Under the pieces are notes generated by a model. It had not been told where the DNA came from. It made no database searches and was given only the letters and a program-made list of their open reading frames with translations. A DNA stretch of 64,000 bases, from positions 62,001 through 126,000 of the forward strand of contig JAVKOQ020000116.1 in assembly GCA_031835245.2 (NCBI GenBank), given 5' to 3'. Shown here in pieces: positions 2-31,124 of this stretch. This DNA is from Balamuthia mandrillaris (lineage: Eukaryota). Positions within the stretch are counted from its first letter, which is position 1. Each line of letters begins with the position of its first letter. Position numbers and translations under genes: made by a program.

Positions 2-1465
2 GCCAAACTGTGGGAAGGGCTTTGCCCTTACGTCAAGGTATTCTGCAGCAGCGCTGGCAATTGTTTGCGCAGCGCTGACCGCCTCTGCATCGGCTCCGAG
101 GAGCCTAATGTAACCGCCCTGAAGCGTGCCACCGAGGCAATGGCCAACCTCATGCGAGAGATGGATCCCAAGGCAACCCCTGCTGGACCAGGAGCACCTC
201 TGATGGCTGCAGCTGCCCCGCCGCCACCGATGGGAGGAGCGCCACCACCACCGATGGGAGCACCCCCACCACCCCCCAGCGGTGGAGGTGCTCCTCCCCC
301 TCCTCCAGGGGCTGGTCCTCCACCACCCCCACCAACAGGCGGAGCTCCTCTGAAGATCGCTGGTGGTTTGGCTGCACTAAAACGTCCCTCCTCTGGCAGC
401 GCTCCACCCAAGCCGGCCCCTGCTGCAGCACCGCCTTCCTTAGGAAACCTGCTGGCAGGATTGGGCAACGTGCAGCTGAAGAAGACCACTCCCAACACCA
501 ACAATACCAACAACAACAATGGCACCTCCACCAGCGACTCTGGCCCTGGATTCTCGGCGGTGTTGGCTGCCTTGAGCTCCGTCAAGCTGAAGAAAGTCTC
601 CACAGGACCACCCCCGGAGGAAAAGAAGAACCAACCCGAGGAAAAAGGAGTGCTTTCCTTCCCCAAGTTGAGAGCCACCAGAGCAGAACATGACCAACAA
701 GCAGACAGCTCCTCCTCCCCGTCCACTTCCTCCTCTGCCCGTGAGTCAGGCAGCGGCAACAGCTTTGGTGTTCACTTGTTGAAGAGGCATGGCACAGGGT
801 CGGGTTCTCTGCAGGCATCTCACCTACGGCGGCGAGCGACCGCGCCTGACAAAGGCGAGGTGCAGGGTGGTTCGCCTCCTCCCATGAACGAGGTCGAACA
901 GAAGTTGCAGGAGAGGCTGAGGAGAATCACTCTGGCCGAAAAGACGCAGTCCGCGTCCAAATTGGGCGAGGAGGAAGAAGCGAAGAAGCAGGAAGAAGAG
1001 ATAGTCAAGACAGAAGAAGAAACAAGTAAACAGGAAGAGGAAGAAAGCACCGCCAACAAAGCCGAAGAACCCAGCAATGATGAAGGTAAAGGCAAAGAAG
1101 ACGGAGAAGGAGAAGAAGTAAATAAAGAAAGCGACGACGAAAGTAGCAGCGAAGAAGAGGAAGAGGGAGAAGGAGAAAACCAGCACTCTTCCTCAACTGT
1201 TGAGAGCAGCAGTAGCAGCGAGGAGGAGGAAGAGAGAGAAGACGAAAAGGAAGAGAGAGAAGACGAGAATGAGGAACAGAAGGAGAAAGAGCCGGAACAA
1301 GAAGCCAAGGCTCAAGAGGAGGATGACAGCGAAAACAGTAGCAGCAGCAGCGAATCCGAAGAAGAGGAGGAGGAGGAGGAGGAGGAGGAAGAGGAGGATA
1401 GCCAAGCCTCAACCAAAGACGAAGAGGAAGAAAGCTCCTCCTCTTCGTCTTCCGACAGCGACTGA
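2..1465 (+). CDS. 3' part of a proline-rich, tandem WH2-motif actin-binding protein with a long acidic tail (5' end outside window)
   Basis: Frame open from position 2. Poly-Pro runs followed by WH2-like segments LGNLLAGLGNVQLKKT and FSAVLAALSSVKLKKV (helix + LKK). E/S/D-rich C-terminus, TGA at 1463-1465. Confidence 0.7.
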   Translation, partial: AKLWEGLCPYVKVFCSSAGNCLRSADRLCIGSEEPNVTALKRATEAMANLMREMDPKATPAGPGAPLMAAAAPPPPMGGAPPPPMGAPPPPPSGGGAPPPPPGAGPPPPPPTGGAPLKIAGGLAALKRPSSGSAPPKPAPAAAPPSLGNLLAGLGNVQLKKTTPNTNNTNNNNGTSTSDSGPGFSAVLAALSSVKLKKVSTGPPPEEKKNQPEEKGVLSFPKLRATRAEHDQQADSSSSPSTSSSARESGSGNSFGVHLLKRHGTGSGSLQASHLRRRATAPDKGEVQGGSPPPMNEVEQKLQERLRRITLAEKTQSASKLGEEEEAKKQEEEIVKTEEETSKQEEEESTANKAEEPSNDEGKGKEDGEGEEVNKESDDESSSEEEEEGEGENQHSSSTVESSSSSEEEEEREDEKEEREDENEEQKEKEPEQEAKAQEEDDSENSSSSSESEEEEEEEEEEEEEDSQASTKDEEEESSSSSSSDSD

Positions 1466-1680
1466 AACGCAGAGTCCAACATTATGCCTCCTCAGAGGTT
1501 TCGTAAAACATAATAAAAATATGCGAGGGTCCCTTGAAAAATGTCGGCACAAATTATTAAAATTTAGATTTCCAAGAAAAAATATTATTTATTGGAGCGC
1601 CAGTGTAGAGTGTGTCTCTGCCGGTACGCGAGGGCAAGATCAAGCAACACGCACTGCGACAACACACAGTCTCTCTGGGC

Positions 1681-4600
1681 ATGGATAGCCTGTACACCAA
1701 ACCGCCCAGAGAAGTGGCGCCTTGTTCCCTCTTTCTGGAAGAGGGGGATCAGCAAATTATGGACGACGAGCGGTTGGAAAAAGACCCAGTGTCGTGGGTG
1801 AACCGCAAGGTGGCGGTCTTGCCTCGGTCGGAAGTGGAGGTGTTGGTCCATCGCCAGTTCCCTATGCATCGCTGGTATGGTGAAACCGAATGGGGTTTCG
1901 TTTGCGCTTTTCAAGGCAGAGCAGTGGGTAAGAAACGTGTTCGATCGAAGAAGCCCGAAGCGCTACCCACCGCCGAGCCGCTACCTGGAACCACCGTCTA
2001 CGTTATGGCTTTCAACGCTGCTGCCATCCAGCTGGACAAATACCTTTCTACCCCTGAAGGATCACGTAAGGCTATTGGCATAACCGGGCGCCGCCTTCCG
2101 CTCTTGGCGAAACCGCTGTATGCCCACCGCACGTACTATTGGGAAAAGCTATTTCCTCCGCTTGATGAACACGATTCATCAAACCTCTTTTCTTCTTCTT
2201 CTTCTTCTTCTTCTTCTTCTTCTTCAAGCAAACAACATGAAGCAGCAGTCCTTTTGCTTTTAGAAGACGACGTACCAGCACTTCGCCGATCTCCTGTTTC
2301 CAACGACCGGCTAAAGGACACACAAGCAAACCTGTGTCCCAGCAAAACCCTGTTAGTCTGCGGCAAGTCGGCATCGTACAAGTTATGGGGACCTCCAATG
2401 CTCGCTTTGTGGCACGGATATCTGCTTCGCCACGTTTTCTTTCAGGAACATCTTCTCAGCCAGTTACGCCTCAATGACTGTATTCGTGGCTTTCGAGACT
2501 TGGATGCCCTCGTTCTGCACAGTCGCCTTTGGAATAGTGTGGAGAAGACGAATAGGACAGGTGGCACCAAGAAGGAAGGAAAGAAGAAGATGGTTCTGGA
2601 AGATGAAGAAGACGGCCTCTCATTGTTGGAGCGTCAACTTGTTATTCCATTCTTTGGTGGTCGTCGTGATGGCAAACAACGAGAGAAGGAGATAGCTAAG
2701 GAGAAGGAAAAGGAGAATGACGTGACCAGCTTAACATCCCCCTCGAGTTCTGGGCAAATCCCGTGGTATAGAGTGCCTCGTCTGAAAGAAACTGGATCCT
2801 CTTCACTTGATTCCATCATCCGTGACAACAGGAAGCTGGTGGTGCTGTGCGATCCGACCGGAAAGAGAACATTGGGCGAGAGAGATGATTTTCTGGCGCA
2901 ACAGCAGCCAAACTGGCTGAAAGAGTGGCAACAGAAGGAAATGGCTGCTTGCACTCCCTCCACTAAGCAACAAAAACGTAACGCCTTTGCTTTGGTTCAT
3001 CACGATGCCGAAGCTGGCATCTTCCATTTCGCTGGGGCACTTACATCACCACCATCAACAGCGAATGCGGAACAACTGAATCTGGACGATGACGCGGCTG
3101 GTGCAGAAGATGAAGAGGGGAATGTGACGGTAGACGAAGAAAAACAGAAGGAAGAGGAGGAACCTCAATTGGAGATTTGCTTCTCTTTTGACACTACGGG
3201 TTCCATGTTTTGCTACCTCGCTCAAGTTCGCAAAAGCCTTAAGTTCTTGGTGCAATCTCTGCTGCTGGACCTCCCTTCTCTTCGCATTGCCATCATCGCT
3301 CATGGAGACTATTGCGATCGCGAACAGTACGTGCTGAAGCGATTGGACTTCTCTAACGATCCCGACCGCCTTTGCGACTTTGTTCAAGGTGTAGGCTCTA
3401 CTGGCGGAGGGGATTCAGCAGAATGTTACGAGCTTGCTTTGAAAGATGCCCGTACTCTGAGCTGGACTCCATCGGCAATGAAAGCCCTGGTGGTTATAGG
3501 AGATGACATTCCACACGAGAAAGGCAACGAGTCCGGAGGAAAAGAGGTGGAGTTGGACTGGCGTGAAGAGCTTAACCAATTGACGGCTCTGGGCATCCAT
3601 GTCTACGGTGTGCAATGTGGCCAACACCGCTACGCGGATTCGTTTTATGCAGCTTTGGGGAAGGAGAGTCAAGGAGCTCATCTACGCCTGGCACAAGTTA
3701 TGGACATCGAACGCCTGATCAAAGGATTGTGCTACCTTCAAGCAACGGACTACCTTGCAAAGAAGTCCAGCGGTGGAGCTTCCTCAGCGGGACTGATGGA
3801 GGGAGAAGACGCCATGCAGGTCAGTGATGGTGCAGTGGGCGAACGGCCACGCAGAGGAGAACCTCTTTCTCAGGATTCCTTTCTGGAAACCATCCACAAA
3901 GCCATTCACGACACACAACAGACGCACGTTACGATTGAGGGACAAAAATACGAGTTATCCACTAGTGAGAAGGCAGGATGTCGTTTTGTTCAGGTGGCAG
4001 AGGTGACGTACATCGAGCAAAACAAGAACAAGACCGATTCCGTTTATGCCGAGCTGGCCAACGCTGGTCATCGCATAACTTGGATGATTGGCAGAGGCAA
4101 GCATTGGGGCCTCATCGTGGATGATCGAATCCTTCGCCCTTCTCCTGCTGCTGTACAAGCCAACAAACGGCAAGAGCAAACGATGACAAAAGAAAGACAG
4201 CAAAAGGAAGAGGAACTACGACAGCAATGCTACGTTAGATCGAAGCAACAGTTTCTTAACAATTGGAAGCAAATGACACACGGCGTGTTGGACGACGTTT
4301 TGGAACCGGGCAAGGTATGCGTGGCAGGCGGTTCTGTGCTTCGCTGCATGATGCCACTCCATAGGCGATGGCCCCTGTGGAACCGTGCCAAGGGCAAGTC
4401 GCAGAGCGATATCGATGTATTCATCTGCAGCACCGACTCCCAGGAAGCTGCCCTCAAAATGGAGCAAGTATTGAACAAGGTTACGACTCGCCTTAATGAA
4501 CAGGGTGTGGCCTACGATTGGAAGTGTAGAAGCCATACCGTCACGCTACTTCCACGAAGCAATGAGACACAACAATTCTCATCCCAGAAAGAGACAGCGG

Positions 4601-5102
4601 AGAAGATGAACAAGGAATGGACGTGCAGTGTGTGCACCTTCCGCCACGAGCAGAAACGAAAGAGATGCGAGATGTGCGACACGCCCTATTCTCCTGTGAA
4701 AGGCTTGAAGGTGATTGATGTTCGAACCAACTCCGATGTTTCTTCCAGCTCTGCTATCGCTACGAAACCTGTGGCCATTCCGCCCATCCAAATCGTGTTG
4801 TACTTGATGAACAGTGTGACGGAGCTGCTGTCTGGATTTGACTTAGATTGCTGTGCTGTGGCCTACGACGGTTGCCATGTCTGGACTCATTATCGTGCCC
4901 TCATCGCTTCGGCCATGAGCATTAATGTTGTGGATCCTTTCAGATTGAGCCCAAGCTACGCACGACGGTTGTTGAAGTATGCAAAGCGAGGCTTCGCAAT
5001 TGTGGTTCCAGGTCTTACCCCAACCACCGCTGTTGAAGCGAAGAAGTATGCTCGAAAGCTGCGTCGACAGGAAAAGGCTACTGAGGACGGCACCAGTAGC
5101 TC

Positions 5103-5134
<32 letters not shown>

Positions 5135-8100
5135 CTTCTTCTTCCGCTTCGTTCGTAAGCAGAGAGAGTTCCATTCAGTCAGCCAACGGTTTACTTTGGC
5201 TGTTGGCGAAAGAGGGAAGCATCGATGGAGAAGAGTTGGAAGAATATGAGGTAGAGAGTGAACAATTTGAAGAAGATTCGGATCGTAGCGACGATGAGTA
5301 TGAAGAGAAGGCCAGTGATGAGGAAGAGGATAGCGATGATGAGTACAGCGAACAAAGGGACGAGAAAACAGGATTGTTGTTGAAGAAAAGTGAAGTACGC
5401 AGACGAGAACAGTCTGGCGTAAAGCGAAGCAAGAAAAGAAGAAAAGAATCATCCAGTGAGGAGGAGGATGGTGATGATGAGTACAGTGAACAGCGGGACG
5501 AGAAAACAGGCCTGTTGTTGAAGAAAAGCGAAGTGAAACGAAGAGCAAGAATGAAGGGTGGCAAACACAAAAAATCGAAGAAGGCTTCTGCCTTCAGTGA
5601 AGAGGAAGAGGAGGACAGTGACGACGAGTATAGCGAACAACGGGACGAGAAAACAGGCCTGTTGTTGAAGAAAAGCGAAGTGAAGCGTAGAGCAAGAAAA
5701 CGGGATGTTAAACGCAGAAAATTGAAGGAGGCTTCCTCATCGAGCGAGAGTGAAGGCGGTGATGACGAATACGGAGAAGAACGTGACCCTCGGACGGGTT
5801 TGCTTATGAAGAAAAAAGAGGCTCGCAAGATGAGAAGAAGAAAAGAAAGAGCACATCGCATGGAACTCCTTCATCGCTCATCTGGAGCAGCTCCCTCTTC
5901 TCCCACCACATCATCTTCAGAAGAGGACGCGATGGCAGAAGAGGAAAGTGCAAGCAAAGAAAAAGCACAGAAAGGGAAAAGCAAAGTGTCGATTGTGAAA
6001 CACTCGCACGCTACTCCGTTGAAGGTTATCACGGACGGAGCAACTTGGCATCATCGCCGGTCTCGCTTCGAACTGTCCGCCACTCATTTGCCTGATTGGT
6101 ATCATCTGGCATCTAATGGGTCGGTGATGCCTCTGGTGCGTGGGTTCTATCGATGGCTGTCGAACTGTGATACCTTCGCCATTCCCCATTTGGAGAGGAA
6201 ACTTGTGGAGACCACTGGGCGAGATCATGCGATGCTGGTGAATGGCCTACTGAGCACGTCATCTCGCTTCTTTCTTCCTCATCACTTTCATCAACACTTC
6301 ACGAAAGTGGCGGAGCGGCTGATGAACGGATGTGTGTTACATGTTGGCCCCAACGATGAGCTCTACCGACTGCGAGAAGTGGAGTTTTATTTCTTCTCCT
6401 CTAGGCACGAGGACATCTTCACTCACAAGAATCCCATGCAACGCTTGGCTGGTCGTTGGTACTTCCATCAACAACCGGATGGCAAGTATCGAGATGGCAA
6501 CTTCAAGGGCTTGGACATTACTTTTGGCTCAATCTTGAAGGATAAGATCAAGGAAGAAGGAAGCGTTTATCAACAGACCAAAACCAAGAAACAAGAAGAA
6601 GAGGAAGAAGAACAAGAACAGGAAGAAGAAAAGGGGAGAGAGGTTTACGGCGGGGTGCTCATTCGAGCAGTGGAACGCGTACGGGATGGAGCGTTCTTCG
6701 AAGGACCCTGCGTGGTGGTCAATCAACTGCTGGAAGAGACGGGCTGCGCCAGTATCGACGCTTTAGTCGCTCATCCCCGCTTTGACTTTGCTGTGGGCAA
6801 CACTGGGTCTTGGCTCTTCGCTCAACGTATGCTTTACCTCTCTTATAATTTTCATGAAAATGAAGAAAAGGAGGAAAGGCAAAAGAACGAGCCGGAGAAG
6901 CAGAAGGAGAAGGGCAAAGCAAACGAAAGTGAGATTCAACCACCACAACGACAAGGCCTTTTCAAAAGGAGAAAGATCTTCTGTTGCCCTCGTGTGGGTC
7001 TCAGCATGAGAGCTATGAATGGCAGCCAACCCACCGCCGAACAATTCTACCATTCGTTCTATCGCTTTATGGCAGGAGAGGAAGACAAGAACGTCAGCCA
7101 ATGGCAAAAAGGACGCGTCTACTCCGCGTTGGCCTTGCTGTCCCCAAACACGCTAGCAGAACAACCTTGCACACCTGCTCACGTGGCGGAGAAGACAGGC
7201 CTAACTCTGGTAGAAGTGGATCAGATCAAACATTGGATGGAGGAAGGACAACAACAAGCTCGCTTGCCTGGAAAAACTCTGGAAGCCATCCGCGAGTACT
7301 TTGCTGGTCGTAACTTTAGTCAGGACCTCCGCACCATTTCTCGCTTCTTTGGATGGTGTCAAGCCCGCGAATTCGATGCAGACGAGTGGTGGGTCTGCCC
7401 CGAAGGTTGGAAAGGAACTGCCATCCAAGGCGACATAGAAGGTAAAGATGAGGAGGACGACTATTTCGATGACATGCTTGCATTCATAATACGAGAGGAA
7501 CGAGGCAACAACAAACGCATCTTCCCGGCCAACAAAGCCGATGTTCTGGCTGCCTTCAAACTGACTCCTTTCGAACAAGTCAAATGCGTGATCCTTGGAC
7601 AGGATCCCTATCACACTCCCGGCTTGGCCCATGGCCTTTGCTTCAGCATCCGCAAACGGATCCAATCGCTGGAGAAGGACCTGCCTCCCAGTCTAAAGAA
7701 CATCTTTGAGGAGCTGAAGGAAGATGTGGAGGGATTCGAGGCACCCAAAGATCACGCCAACTTGGAGAGTTGGGCCTTAAATGGCGTGCTGATGCTCAAT
7801 TGTGTGTTGACCGTGGAGGCACATAAACCCAACAGCCACCGTGAAATAGGATGGACTCGCTTCACTGATACTGTTATTCGGTATTTCTCTTTCTCTTTCC
7901 TTTCGTTGCTTCTCTCCTTTTGTTTTCTTCTTGCTCTTCCTCCTTTTCTTCTTCGTGCTTCCTTGTTCTTGTTTTTGTTCTTCTTCTTTTTCTTCTTCCT
8001 CTTCCCTCTTTGCTAACGGATAACGTTATTTTGCAGCGAGCTAAGCGAGAAGAAAGAGGGATTGGTGTTTTTGTTGTGGGGCGAAGAGGCCCAAGCCAAA

Positions 8101-8259
8101 GCGAAGCTCATCGACCAGAGCAAGCATCACATTCTCAAAGCGGGTCATCCAAGTCCTCGCTCGTCCGTTCCGTTTCGTGGATGCAAGCACTTTTCGGAGG
8201 CCAACCGCTTGTTGGTGGCTTCTGGTAAGACTCCCATCGACTGGCGGCTTCCTCTTTGA
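1681..8259 (+). CDS. Large multidomain protein: unknown N-terminus, vWA, nucleotidyltransferase with inserted RanBP2 zinc finger, 4x acidic/basic repeat, AAG/MPG-like domain, family-1 uracil-DNA glycosylase. Exons 1681-7880 and 8037-8259.
   Basis: vWA: FSFDTTGSM...GGGDSAECYE...GDDIPH. NTase: VAGGSVL...SDIDVF...FDLDCC. ZnF: WTCSVCTF...CEMCDTP. MPG-like: YRLREVEFY...GGVLIRA...EGPC...PRVGL. UNG: GQDPYH, PPSL, VLMLN, LLWG, HPSP. Intron 7881-8036 (GTATTT...CTAAC...TTGCAG) joins TVIR/ELSEKKEGLVFLLWG in frame. First ATG at 1681 (ORF track starts at a GTG, 1612). Confidence 0.85.
5329..5850 (+). repeat. Four in-frame tandem coding repeats (~46-49 aa), consensus DDEYSEQRDEKTGLLLKKSEVKRR
   Basis: Near-identical DNA units start at about 5329, 5467 and 5614; a more diverged fourth copy (DDEYGEERDPRTGLLMKKKE) starts near 5755. 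Confidence 0.9.
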
Positions 8260-8677: not shown

Positions 8678-9539
8678 ATGATAGTCGACAAAAATTACGC
8701 AGCCAAGGAAAAGAAAGTAGCAGAACAACCTCTCGAGATGGAGTTTGTAACGAAAGGACAAGCGGACAAAGGCAGGCAGAGCGGCCCTGACAAGCCGCTG
8801 GTTCATTCTCTTTACATCATCAACAAGTCGGGAGGTCTCATTTACCAAAAGGTACTTCTTGGTTTTTTTTTTTAAAAAAAATCTTTTATCGTTTGTTAGC
8901 AGCTACCCTTTTTTTTTTTGTTTGCTGGTAACACTTTTTTTTTATTCTTATTTGATTAGAATTTTGTGGAAGGAGTATCTATTGCTGAGGATCCTGTTCG
9001 TCTTGGTGGTCTACTTTATGGGTTTGTTTTTTCTCTTTATGTACCATTTTCATCTTTTTTCAAGATTTTTTTGCCTCTAACCTTCGGTCAACAAAAATAG
9101 CATGCACACATTTACCAGCAAGTTGTCCCCTGTTCCTGATTGTACTGGACTAGAAGTGTTGGAGACAGACACCTTCCGGCTGCATTGCTTCCAGACTCTC
9201 ACTGGTTTGTTCGAGCCTTCTCGTTCCTCTCTTGCTTCTTGCTTGCTATGTTCACTTCTCTTGTTCTCTCTTCTCTCTTCTCTCTTCTCTTCTCTTCGTC
9301 ATTCTCTCTTCTCTCTTCTCTCTTGCTAAACTTACTCATTTCAACAAAAAGGGACCAAGTTTTTCATGACGGCAGACGCAAAGCGGACAAACGTGGACAA
9401 GGTCCTCCAAAGCATCTACGTGTTATACACGGACTACGTGCTGAAGAACCCTTTCTACGAGTTCAAGAGGGAACAACCCATCCGCTGCGCCAAGTTCGAT
9501 TATCATTTGGATGAGCTTATTCGAACTCAAAACGCTTAA
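8678..9539 (+). CDS. TRAPPC4: TRAPP complex subunit 4 (Trs23/sybindin family), spliced
   Basis: SLYIINKSGGLIYQK, LEVLETDTFRLHCFQTLTG and IYVLYTDYVLKNPFYE...PIRC motifs over 4 exons; TAA 9537-9539. Confidence 0.9.
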
Positions 9540-9578
9540 CGAAAGAGAGAGAGAGAGAGAAAAAGAGCGAGAGAGAGC

Positions 9579-29803: not shown

Positions 29804-31124
29804 ATGAAAGCGCAAAGGCGAAGGCGAGTCGAGCCTTTCGTCAGGGAGGCAGGCTCCTCTGCATTGCCAACTTCTACGGCAGGGCCGACCGCCGCCACAG
29901 CGTTCATCGCCGGCTGCGTTGGTCTTATTTGTGGCATCATCGCCACGACCTTTCACCACCAGACATGGTCATCTCAAGGCGCTAATGCAAAGGTCGAGAA
30001 GAGAACCGAGGATCCAGCAGAGAAAGAACAACTGGAGGAACAAAAACAACAGTTGGCCCAACAGCAGCGGGCCTTTCGAGACGCGGAAGCCTGGCGGCAG
30101 CAACTCGTGAACGAGCTCTACAAAGACGTGACGGACGATGAGTTGGACGAGGCCACGCGCTGGAAGCTACGCTCAACCTTTCTCTCCTTCGCGCTCCTGC
30201 TCGCGGGTGTCATCTCTGCCGGAGCAGGTTATTGCCTCCCTGAAGCCACGAGCCGCTCGCCTGGCAAAGGAGCTCGGCGCTGACCAGGCCTGGTCGGAGA
30301 AGAAGCAGGACGCTTTCCTCTCTTGTTACATCTACCACAGCGCCGGCATCGAGGGCAACAGCCTCAGCCTGGAGGATACCTCATTCTTTGTGGAACAGAA
30401 GAAGCTATTCGGTAGTCATGAGTACGTTCTCGGTGAGCAGAACATCATCGAAGTTCGCAACCTTTATCAAGCAATGGAGACCCTGCAACTTGTGGACCTC
30501 CTGGGTATCCTTATGACCAATGGCTCTGCCTCCTCCCTGCCATGGATGAACATCACTCCCGAGTTGCTGCTCGATAGTGTTTGGACTATCACCAGAGACA
30601 CTGGTGCACCAAGCAGGAGCCTCAGACGACACCCAGTTGCAGTGGGTGCTCAGAAAGTGGTGCTGCCAATGCCCGATGAACTCCCCATTCTCTTTACCGA
30701 GTACGTGGTCTGGATTCAAGACAGCCTCTCCGAACTTAAGCAGAAGAACAGAGCACCAACGCGCAGCATCGACATCCACGACGACCACATCGACGGCATC
30801 AGACGTGCACTTGACCTAGCCTGCGATGCTCACACTCGCTTTGTACACAGCCATCCTTTTGCTGATGGAAATGGACGTATGGCACGCTTGCTGGATGCTC
30901 TTGTCTTGCAGCGAGTGAGCTTGCCACCGCCCATGTTCTCACGACACCACCGCCAGGAGTACATGAATGCTGTCTCCGCCGCCACAATTCATGGCAACTA
31001 CGAGCCCCTGTGTCAGATGCATCTAGCGGCTGTGGTTGCATCTCTTTATGCTGTCGAGCAGCTAGTCGCTGAAGGAGACCCCTTCGCGAGTTGCAATCAC
31101 AGCCGCCAGTTGTTCGTTAATTAA
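29804..31124 (+). CDS. Membrane-anchored Fic-domain AMPylase (FICD/HYPE-like)
   Basis: N-terminal TM AFIAGCVGLICGIIATTF; autoinhibitory YHSAGIEGN; catalytic HPFADGNGRMAR. The two frames are joined by a putative intron ~30128-30227, or by a frameshift. Confidence 0.8.

Follow-up and report, generated by a model that had tools for sequence, protein, structure and literature searches.

A single predicted gene of Balamuthia mandrillaris joins a uracil-DNA glycosylase and an AAG-fold domain to a Gad2-type nucleotidyltransferase

We analysed a 64,000-nucleotide stretch of Balamuthia mandrillaris DNA (assembly GCA_031835245.2, contig JAVKOQ020000116.1, positions 62,001 to 126,000 of the forward strand; hereafter, the window), near the beginning of which lies a long open reading frame (ORF) for a predicted multidomain protein. 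The frame is free of stops from 1609 to 8013 (2,135 codons), and the runner-up in the window, with 538 codons, is about four times shorter. In 300-nt bins, the ORF frame contained no stops in 21 of 21 bins, the other two forward frames had stops in every bin, and the composition of the ORF frame was of coding type from end to end. The preliminary description of this DNA had recognized a single frame of about 2,140 amino acids (aa); this was borne out with one refinement, namely, that the full 2,140-aa product, which ends at 8259, requires removal of a 156-nt intron predicted to interrupt the uracil-DNA glycosylase (UNG) domain (Table 1). The UNG profile NF003589 is continuous over this splice, exon 1 covering model positions 18-152 and exon 2 covering 155-226, so that the HPSP motif falls in exon 2. 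From the N-terminus to the C-terminus, the predicted protein consists of an N-terminal region, a vWA domain, a nucleotidyltransferase (NTase) with an internal NZF-type zinc finger, four charged repeats, an AAG-fold domain and UNG.

Table 1. Features of the fusion gene, with positions in the window
Feature	Position	Strand	Remarks
Exon 1	1681..7880	+	first ATG 1681, codons 1-2067, no in-frame stops
Single GT-AG intron (predicted)	7881..8036	+	156 nt, 57% T, interrupts UNG domain
Exon 2	8037..8259	+	UNG C-terminal part, motif B HPSPRS, stop
N-terminal 480 aa	1681..3120	+	relatives not detected; poly-Ser tract within
vWA domain	3169..3750 (aa 497-690)	+	DTTGS, STGGGD, VIGDD motifs
Segment of about 80 aa between vWA and NTase	3883..4125	+	no significant matches
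Gad2/PF26128-type NTase core	4231..5019 (aa 851-1113)	+	AGGS 4324, SDID 4405, FDLD 4837, KYAKRG 4975
RanBP2/NZF-type zinc finger	4612..4686 (aa 978-1002)	+	located within NTase, not beside it
NTase GL..LL motif	5188	+	downstream of core
Four acidic/basic repeats, DDEYxExRDxxTGL..KK	5335..5865	+	basic runs resembling nuclear localization signals
AAG/MPG-fold domain and appendage	6241..7380 (aa ~1521-1900)	+	E1568, Y1570, H1582, H1596, D1612, R1662, R1771-V-G
C-terminal helical appendage of AAG-fold domain, helix-turn-helix-like	about 7108-7380	+	
Family-1 UNG, N-terminal part	7447..7880	+	GQDPYH 7597, GLCFS, PPSL, LN

A scan of exon 1 for T-rich GT..AG introns returned seven candidates, four of which share the acceptor of the UNG intron, and three of which begin at 5096 and cover a poly-Ser tract. 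Two of the latter (5096-5162 and 5096-5178) shift the frame and would terminate an upstream product at about aa 1165; together with in-frame ATGs downstream and the absence of the unspliced ORF from a collection of 15 billion proteins, they speak for an alternative in which two genes, or an assembly join, have been read as a single frame. We consider this alternative very improbable because the same splices would delete the GL..LL motif, which is kept in 15 of 17 NTase relatives, because their donor GTAGCT compares poorly with the nearby donors GTATTT, GTACTT and GTTTGT, and because the ORF frame is stop-free where the off frames have stops in every bin. The third candidate from 5096 is in frame; it would keep the fusion and bring the GL..LL spacing (74 residues) nearer to the 35-41 residues of the family. 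The donor contexts were taken from a small gene with several introns directly downstream (8790-9540, forward strand), the product of which resembles a TRAPP subunit. One gene is by far the best reading, with splicing and a single transcript predicted from the DNA.

The C-terminal domain (aa 1923-2140) is assigned to family 1 of UNG by both NCBIfam and PDB matches, in agreement with the earlier recognition of a UNG carrying GQDPYH and HPSP. The two exons were scanned separately, so that exon 1 stands below every NCBIfam cut-off; for NF003589 (cut-off 223 bits), exon 1 scores 164.7 bits and exon 2 scores 87.7 bits, and the summed scores exceed the cut-off. Motif A, GQDPY, including the catalytic Asp, is present at aa 1973, GLCFS is found at aa 1985, and LMLN ends at aa 2040; the Phe of GLCFS and the Asn of LLN are presumably the uracil-pocket residues. 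The domain has GQDPYH, GLCFS, PPSL, LN and the motif B His in common with family-1 enzymes (TIGR00628, NF003589), and differs from them in its place at the C-terminal end of a chain of 2,140 aa and in having HPSPRS in place of HPSPLS, which puts an Arg (R2108, 8158-8160) at the position of Leu272. None of 69 distinct UNG frames from viral contigs show HPSPRS. An Arg at this site is reported for SMUG1, cytomegalovirus UNG and vaccinia UNG (PMC1919486), so that R2108 is compatible with activity; the engineered human UNG L272R/D145N, used for stabilising an enzyme-substrate complex (PMC3260424), has the same HPSPRS as the window protein (4SKN). Among 80 viral UNG loci, none carried an AAG-like or NTase gene.

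The domain preceding UNG had been described, from its motifs, as resembling AAG/MPG. Folding of the single sequence was unusable (predicted local distance difference test, pLDDT, 34), and an AlphaFold model from alignment A2, which consists of the window domain and 141 relatives with P0007-P0010 and 13 longer matches excluded, was used instead (pLDDT 83.8; predicted template modelling score 0.84). In a Foldseek search of PDB with this model, human AAG filled the top nine places, and the VIA check gave human AAG at Z 12.4 with a root-mean-square deviation of 2.9 Å over 168 residues, the top non-AAG row having Z 4.3. At the level of the model, the AAG fold is thus confirmed. By sequence, the window domain is unmatched by PF02245 (score cut-off 27 bits), and sequence-only PDB searches with the family did not reach AAG.

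Pocket residues were mapped from human AAG to a canonical MPG (L021) and from there to A2, the latter step being a weak profile alignment on which the whole register depends. In this register, each of the 142 sequences has the equivalents of AAG E125, Y127, H136, R182, R261 and G263, an invariance owed partly to the profile-based selection of members; in the window, the first four would be E1568, Y1570, H1582 and R1662, respectively. In the same register, the following sites differ: (i) the N169 site (D1612), which is Asp in 142 of 142 sequences of A2 and in 10 of 11 of alignment A1, and Gly in one excluded sequence; (ii) the Y159 site, which is His in 141 of 142; (iii) the Y162 site, which is D1605 in the window, with G, S, N, E, A and D covering 137 of 142 sequences, mostly as G, S or N. 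Compared to human AAG (PF02245; PDB 1EWN, 1F6O, 3UBY, 1BNK), with which it has 19-20% identity, the window domain therefore has the fold and the E125, Y127, H136, R182 and R261-V262-G263 equivalents in common, and is distinguished by Asp for N169, His for Y159, a non-aromatic Y162 site, a longer basic loop and the extra helical C-terminal appendage. [quoted passage not shown] Literature searches on N169D and Asn169 returned no papers. Because the specificity residue and the intercalator differ from those of AAG, activity on 3-methyladenine or hypoxanthine should not be assumed, and, judged by sequence, the AAG-like family is not canonical MPG. In one branch of alignment A1 (P0007, P0008 and P0010), the loop between the Y159- and N169-equivalent strands is missing (WYFHG-SGL), leaving no hairpin available for insertion into duplex DNA.

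The family to which this domain belongs is large. Searched against 1.84 billion representatives clustered at 50% identity, a profile from ten shorter AAG-like homologues, the starting set, matched 3,198 at E<=0.001 and 2,333 at 1e-10; the best 150 were inspected, and the tail may contain canonical MPGs. In A2, 63 of 142 members match PF02245 at E<=0.01 and 9 match HTH_23. The family was found in 14 viral contigs (8 named giant-virus metagenome-assembled genomes), in Hyperionvirus, Catovirus and mimivirus models, in six bacterial genomes, three of them myxobacterial, in the amoebozoans Pelomyxa and Mastigamoeba (stand-alone in both), in Bigelowiella and in one fungus. Its proteins are usually stand-alone, with a median length of 284 aa and more than 600 aa in 2 of 158, and canonical MPG co-occurs in one of the five family-carrying genomes tested. 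No neighbour was common to 20 AAG-like loci with ORF lists. In a tree of 179 AAG-like domains, support around the window domain was low; it was not grouped with the viral contigs, and no donor can be named. Ten of the 14 viral members (L001-L004 and L009-L014) end before most of the appendage (profile end 161-214 of 285), and these truncated members, some of them split by stops, suggest a minimal form of about 200 aa. Other arrangements were seen: a 1,235-aa Cloacimonadota protein (L018:3864-7571) with an N-terminal AAG-like domain and a CARDB domain further on; an AAG-like gene of a 1.47-Mb viral contig (L005:4001-5744), immediately upstream of an RNA ligase (PF09414); and a predicted protein of 1,404 aa (P0150), which may stem from a merged gene call, with AAG-like and M16 peptidase domains. 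The family is mostly below the Pfam cut-off, is labelled hypothetical or uncharacterized where named, and is apparently unstudied.

The NTase named in the preliminary description is also well supported: the core matches a profile from 28 outside relatives at E 9e-47, and the Pol-beta motifs GGS..DxD, FDxD and R..KY..RG are intact. Of the four near-length homologues, three (P0012-P0014) match in this domain and are assigned to PF26128 (Gad2) by precomputed annotation, although our Pfam scan gave no PF26128 row for any of them or for the window; all three listed ESM Atlas matches are PF26128 Gad2 clusters (score 0.88, at the level of a lead), and PHROG 1614, 'nucleotidyltransferase', matches at E 3e-5. 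A metagenome scan yielded 118 confirmed relatives, of which 80 were retained. PDB sequence searches with the segment matched no NTase structure, and no NTase match was confirmed in viral contigs or phage records. Gad2 is reported as an anti-Gabija protein of phage SPbetaL7 with a predicted NTase fold (bioRxiv 10.1101/2023.05.01.538930), and the pandoravirus BTB-NTases of 'cluster 7', described as having two Asp residues, a Gln close to the site of the third carboxylate and DFD for RRD, have been modelled as template-independent enzymes of the class II CCA/poly(A) type (bioRxiv 10.1101/2023.12.02.569716). The window NTase has GGS..DxD, the conserved Gln, FDxD, R..KY..RG and GL..LL in common with phage SPbetaL7 Gad2, fungal NTase-ankyrin proteins and pandoravirus cluster 7, the last being likened to it by the published motif description rather than by alignment. 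It differs from this kin in the NZF within the core, in the C-terminal SDY/NPG motifs of the eukaryotic members, which were not detected, and in its partners, with glycosylases and vWA taking the place of ankyrin, PARP, BTB or MYND. In the parts of the literature examined, no measured activity was found for any Gad2/PF26128 member. A gap-filling repair polymerase (Pol beta, family X) is not indicated: in place of the family-X domain set, with its lyase and template-directed core, there was only a 38-residue DNA_pol_B_palm match (E 0.028).

Among 19 long NTase relatives, Pfam found PARP in three, ankyrin repeats in five (one also with PARP), BTB in one, MYND in one and nothing in ten. PARP-NTase fusions of Gad2 type were seen in several metagenome contigs (L025:223-5514, L051:933-3977, L054:4878-9884 and P0014), three of them with WGR and one additionally with BRCT. 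These partners may place the NTase relatives in a DNA-damage context, and the recurring PARP-NTase fusion may be more telling on the role of the NTase than the window gene is.

The RanBP2 zinc finger of the preliminary description proved to be inserted within the NTase. It has the W-x-C-x2-C-x10-C-x2-C pattern (aa 980-999), with Zn_ribbon_RanBP of Pfam at E 8.9e-5, under the cut-off, and its top small-domain PDB matches are the fingers of YAF2, TAB2/3, RYBP, NPL4 and HOIP, which bind ubiquitin. The vWA domain also stood up, with the metal ion-dependent adhesion site (MIDAS)-type pattern DxSxS, T, D realized as DTTGS (a Thr variant), STGGGD and VIGDD; Pfam VWA falls marginally under the cut-off (E 8.5e-5, 23.3 bits against 23.8). 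It is 40% identical to P0011, an amoebozoan vWA-UBC protein, and matches 39 of 50,697 phage records, the best with 44% identity over 97% of the domain length. The stand-alone vWA proteins of phages (Rctr197k_275, RHph_I1_18 EVB91_149, crAss-like phages) are 30-45% identical over the whole domain and have C-terminal tails of their own that are absent from the window protein; in their neighbourhoods (L182-L185), thymidylate synthase is near in three of the four that are annotated, RNA ligase in two, and a tRNA array in the fourth. The four charged repeats, too, were found again, at aa 1219, 1265, 1314 and 1361, with three of the four detectable as DNA repeats; the charged residues make up 54% of aa 1200-1435. 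The sole pattern match to a PCNA-interacting (PIP) box, at aa 59, was poor and was not accepted. For aa 1-480, we found no match in Pfam, PHROGs, PADLOC, Atlas, PDB, viral contigs or the protein collection (shorter lengths only), and NCBIfam gave two rows only, at E~0.15. For aa 701-850, nothing was found in viral contigs or phage records, and a Cas6/CRISPR_assoc assignment (E 0.003-0.004, under the cut-off) was not accepted.

The DNA is that of an intron-rich eukaryote, and the genes around the fusion are spliced and of housekeeping type; those named by Pfam encode a ClpB-type ATPase, SelO, a Fic protein, a nucleoside hydrolase, an alpha-amylase and a CDP-alcohol phosphatidyltransferase. In view of these spliced flanking genes, a viral insertion was rejected. 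The Fic/DOC-family ORF (30132-31124, forward strand; Pfam E 7e-9) has an HPFADGNGR motif and apparently no introns. The upstream gene (2-1465, forward strand) ends in a proline-rich, WH2-like and acidic region that looks WASP- or formin-like by eye, and the Pfam scan of it was empty.

The surroundings bear on the suggestion, already made in the preliminary description, that the protein attacks foreign DNA. An antiviral or conflict effector would destroy foreign DNA containing uracil or modified purines through many abasic sites, with the NTase signalling or marking the target. Three modules have close viral relatives, namely, the AAG-like domain in the 14 viral contigs, the vWA domain in the phage protein with 44% identity, and the NTase in a family named after a phage anti-defence protein (bioRxiv 10.1101/2023.05.01.538930); the enhanced excision of normal guanine reported on loss of N169 in AAG (PMC5363859) would suit an aggressive enzyme. 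These indirect viral links stand, but the neighbours are of housekeeping type, and PADLOC gave nothing for the glycosylase or NTase segments: five window segments produced one weak match (Cas6, E 0.003, aa 701-850) and six family members none. Moreover, viral carriage of the same domains is equally consistent with viruses repairing their own DNA, and the tree neither groups the window domain with viral contigs nor names a donor. We regard such an effector as doubtful.

We consider it likely that the locus is a single nuclear gene whose product combines family-1 UNG with an AAG-fold domain excising an unusual purine. More specifically, we propose a tethered starter of base excision, in which the NTase acts separately instead of filling gaps, and put the probability of this reading at roughly one half. 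The basic repeats would likely bring the protein to the nucleus and onto DNA, and docking on ubiquitylated proteins or other partners would likely run through the NZF and vWA domains. Uracil would be removed by UNG, the motifs of which are observed, and the AAG-like domain, with the modelled fold but a pocket altered compared to AAG, would cut the N-glycosidic bond via E1568; its substrate, at a guess, may be a guanine-like or modified purine. The NTase, by analogy with its family, may add a nucleoside monophosphate, with no need of a template, to a protein or to the end of a nucleic acid, and the repair would be finished by the AP endonuclease, polymerase and ligase of the cell. The DNA-damage partners of the NTase relatives are counted in favour of this reading. 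The coupled lesion-excision and nucleotide-transfer machine of the preliminary description is not supported. DNA glycosylases leave abasic sites, no apurinic/apyrimidinic (AP) endonuclease or lyase domain was detected in the chain (aa 1-480 and 691-850 being without assigned domain), and the transferase belongs to a family resembling CCA/poly(A)-adding enzymes and is not of family X; a self-contained excise-and-fill enzyme is therefore unlikely.

Several observations weigh against the tethered starter. The L021-to-A2 alignment behind the residue mapping has an hhalign probability of 9% (E 0.004), and the Y162 equivalent, loss of which cripples base flipping in AAG, is missing, so that the domain may be inactive on duplex DNA. 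Two motifs that the NTase family has further downstream, SDY..PWG and NPG..GSFHP, were not detected in the window protein, the zinc finger carries His at the Asn position of YAF2, and the promiscuous fusion of the NTase family with ankyrin, PARP, BTB and MYND weakens any inference from a single partner. Two window domains were found together in none of the 172 proteins and none of the 186 loci fetched, the latter having been fetched by one domain each with flanks of up to 8 kb on contigs many of which are short. The near-length search, in which the best 7,977 candidates with lengths of 1,136-3,616 aa were scored, gave four matches, each to a single domain. In the literature searched, mostly at the level of titles and abstracts, there was no natural fusion of two unrelated glycosylase folds with a transferase; the supplements of the two preprints may list more homologues or architectures. 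The novelty claimed in the preliminary description is thereby upheld; a fusion seen once, however, gives no support to selection for joint function.

The singleton architecture is also what would be expected of a passenger fusion, in which adjacent genes have merged, each domain works on its own or is released by cleavage, and UNG is an ordinary uracil glycosylase. The long low-complexity linkers separating the halves, such as the highly charged stretch at aa 1200-1435, and the usual stand-alone state of the AAG-like family, including the two amoebozoans, are consistent with this, but the catalytic motifs are all intact, the finger lies inside the NTase and the glycosylases are directly adjacent, each of which suggests some shaping but does not prove coupling. 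We regard a mere passenger fusion as unlikely. Taken together, we judge the architecture to be real, new and a singleton so far, with function inferred; the fusion is probably lineage-specific.

A Rosetta stone interpretation, in which the fusion connects an AAG-fold family having a re-wired pocket both with uracil excision and with the orphan Gad2-type transferases, is speculative, and we would not count on it. If it were true, there would be a new excise-and-tag pathway, in repair or in giant-virus defence, by which bases that are guanine-like or modified by viruses are excised and a nucleotide is attached to the damaged nucleic acid or to a partner. The fusion and the PARP fusions give a first, weak hint of Gad2-type NTases in the handling of nucleic-acid damage. 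Of more general reach is the AAG-like family, which differs from AAG at the residue that excludes normal guanine; its stand-alone members of about 280 aa would lend themselves easily to assays and could show a base-excision specificity that is new, relevant to work on glycosylase base editors (PMC10317176). It is as a pointer to this family, large, with a changed pocket and apparently unstudied, that the fusion has its best value.

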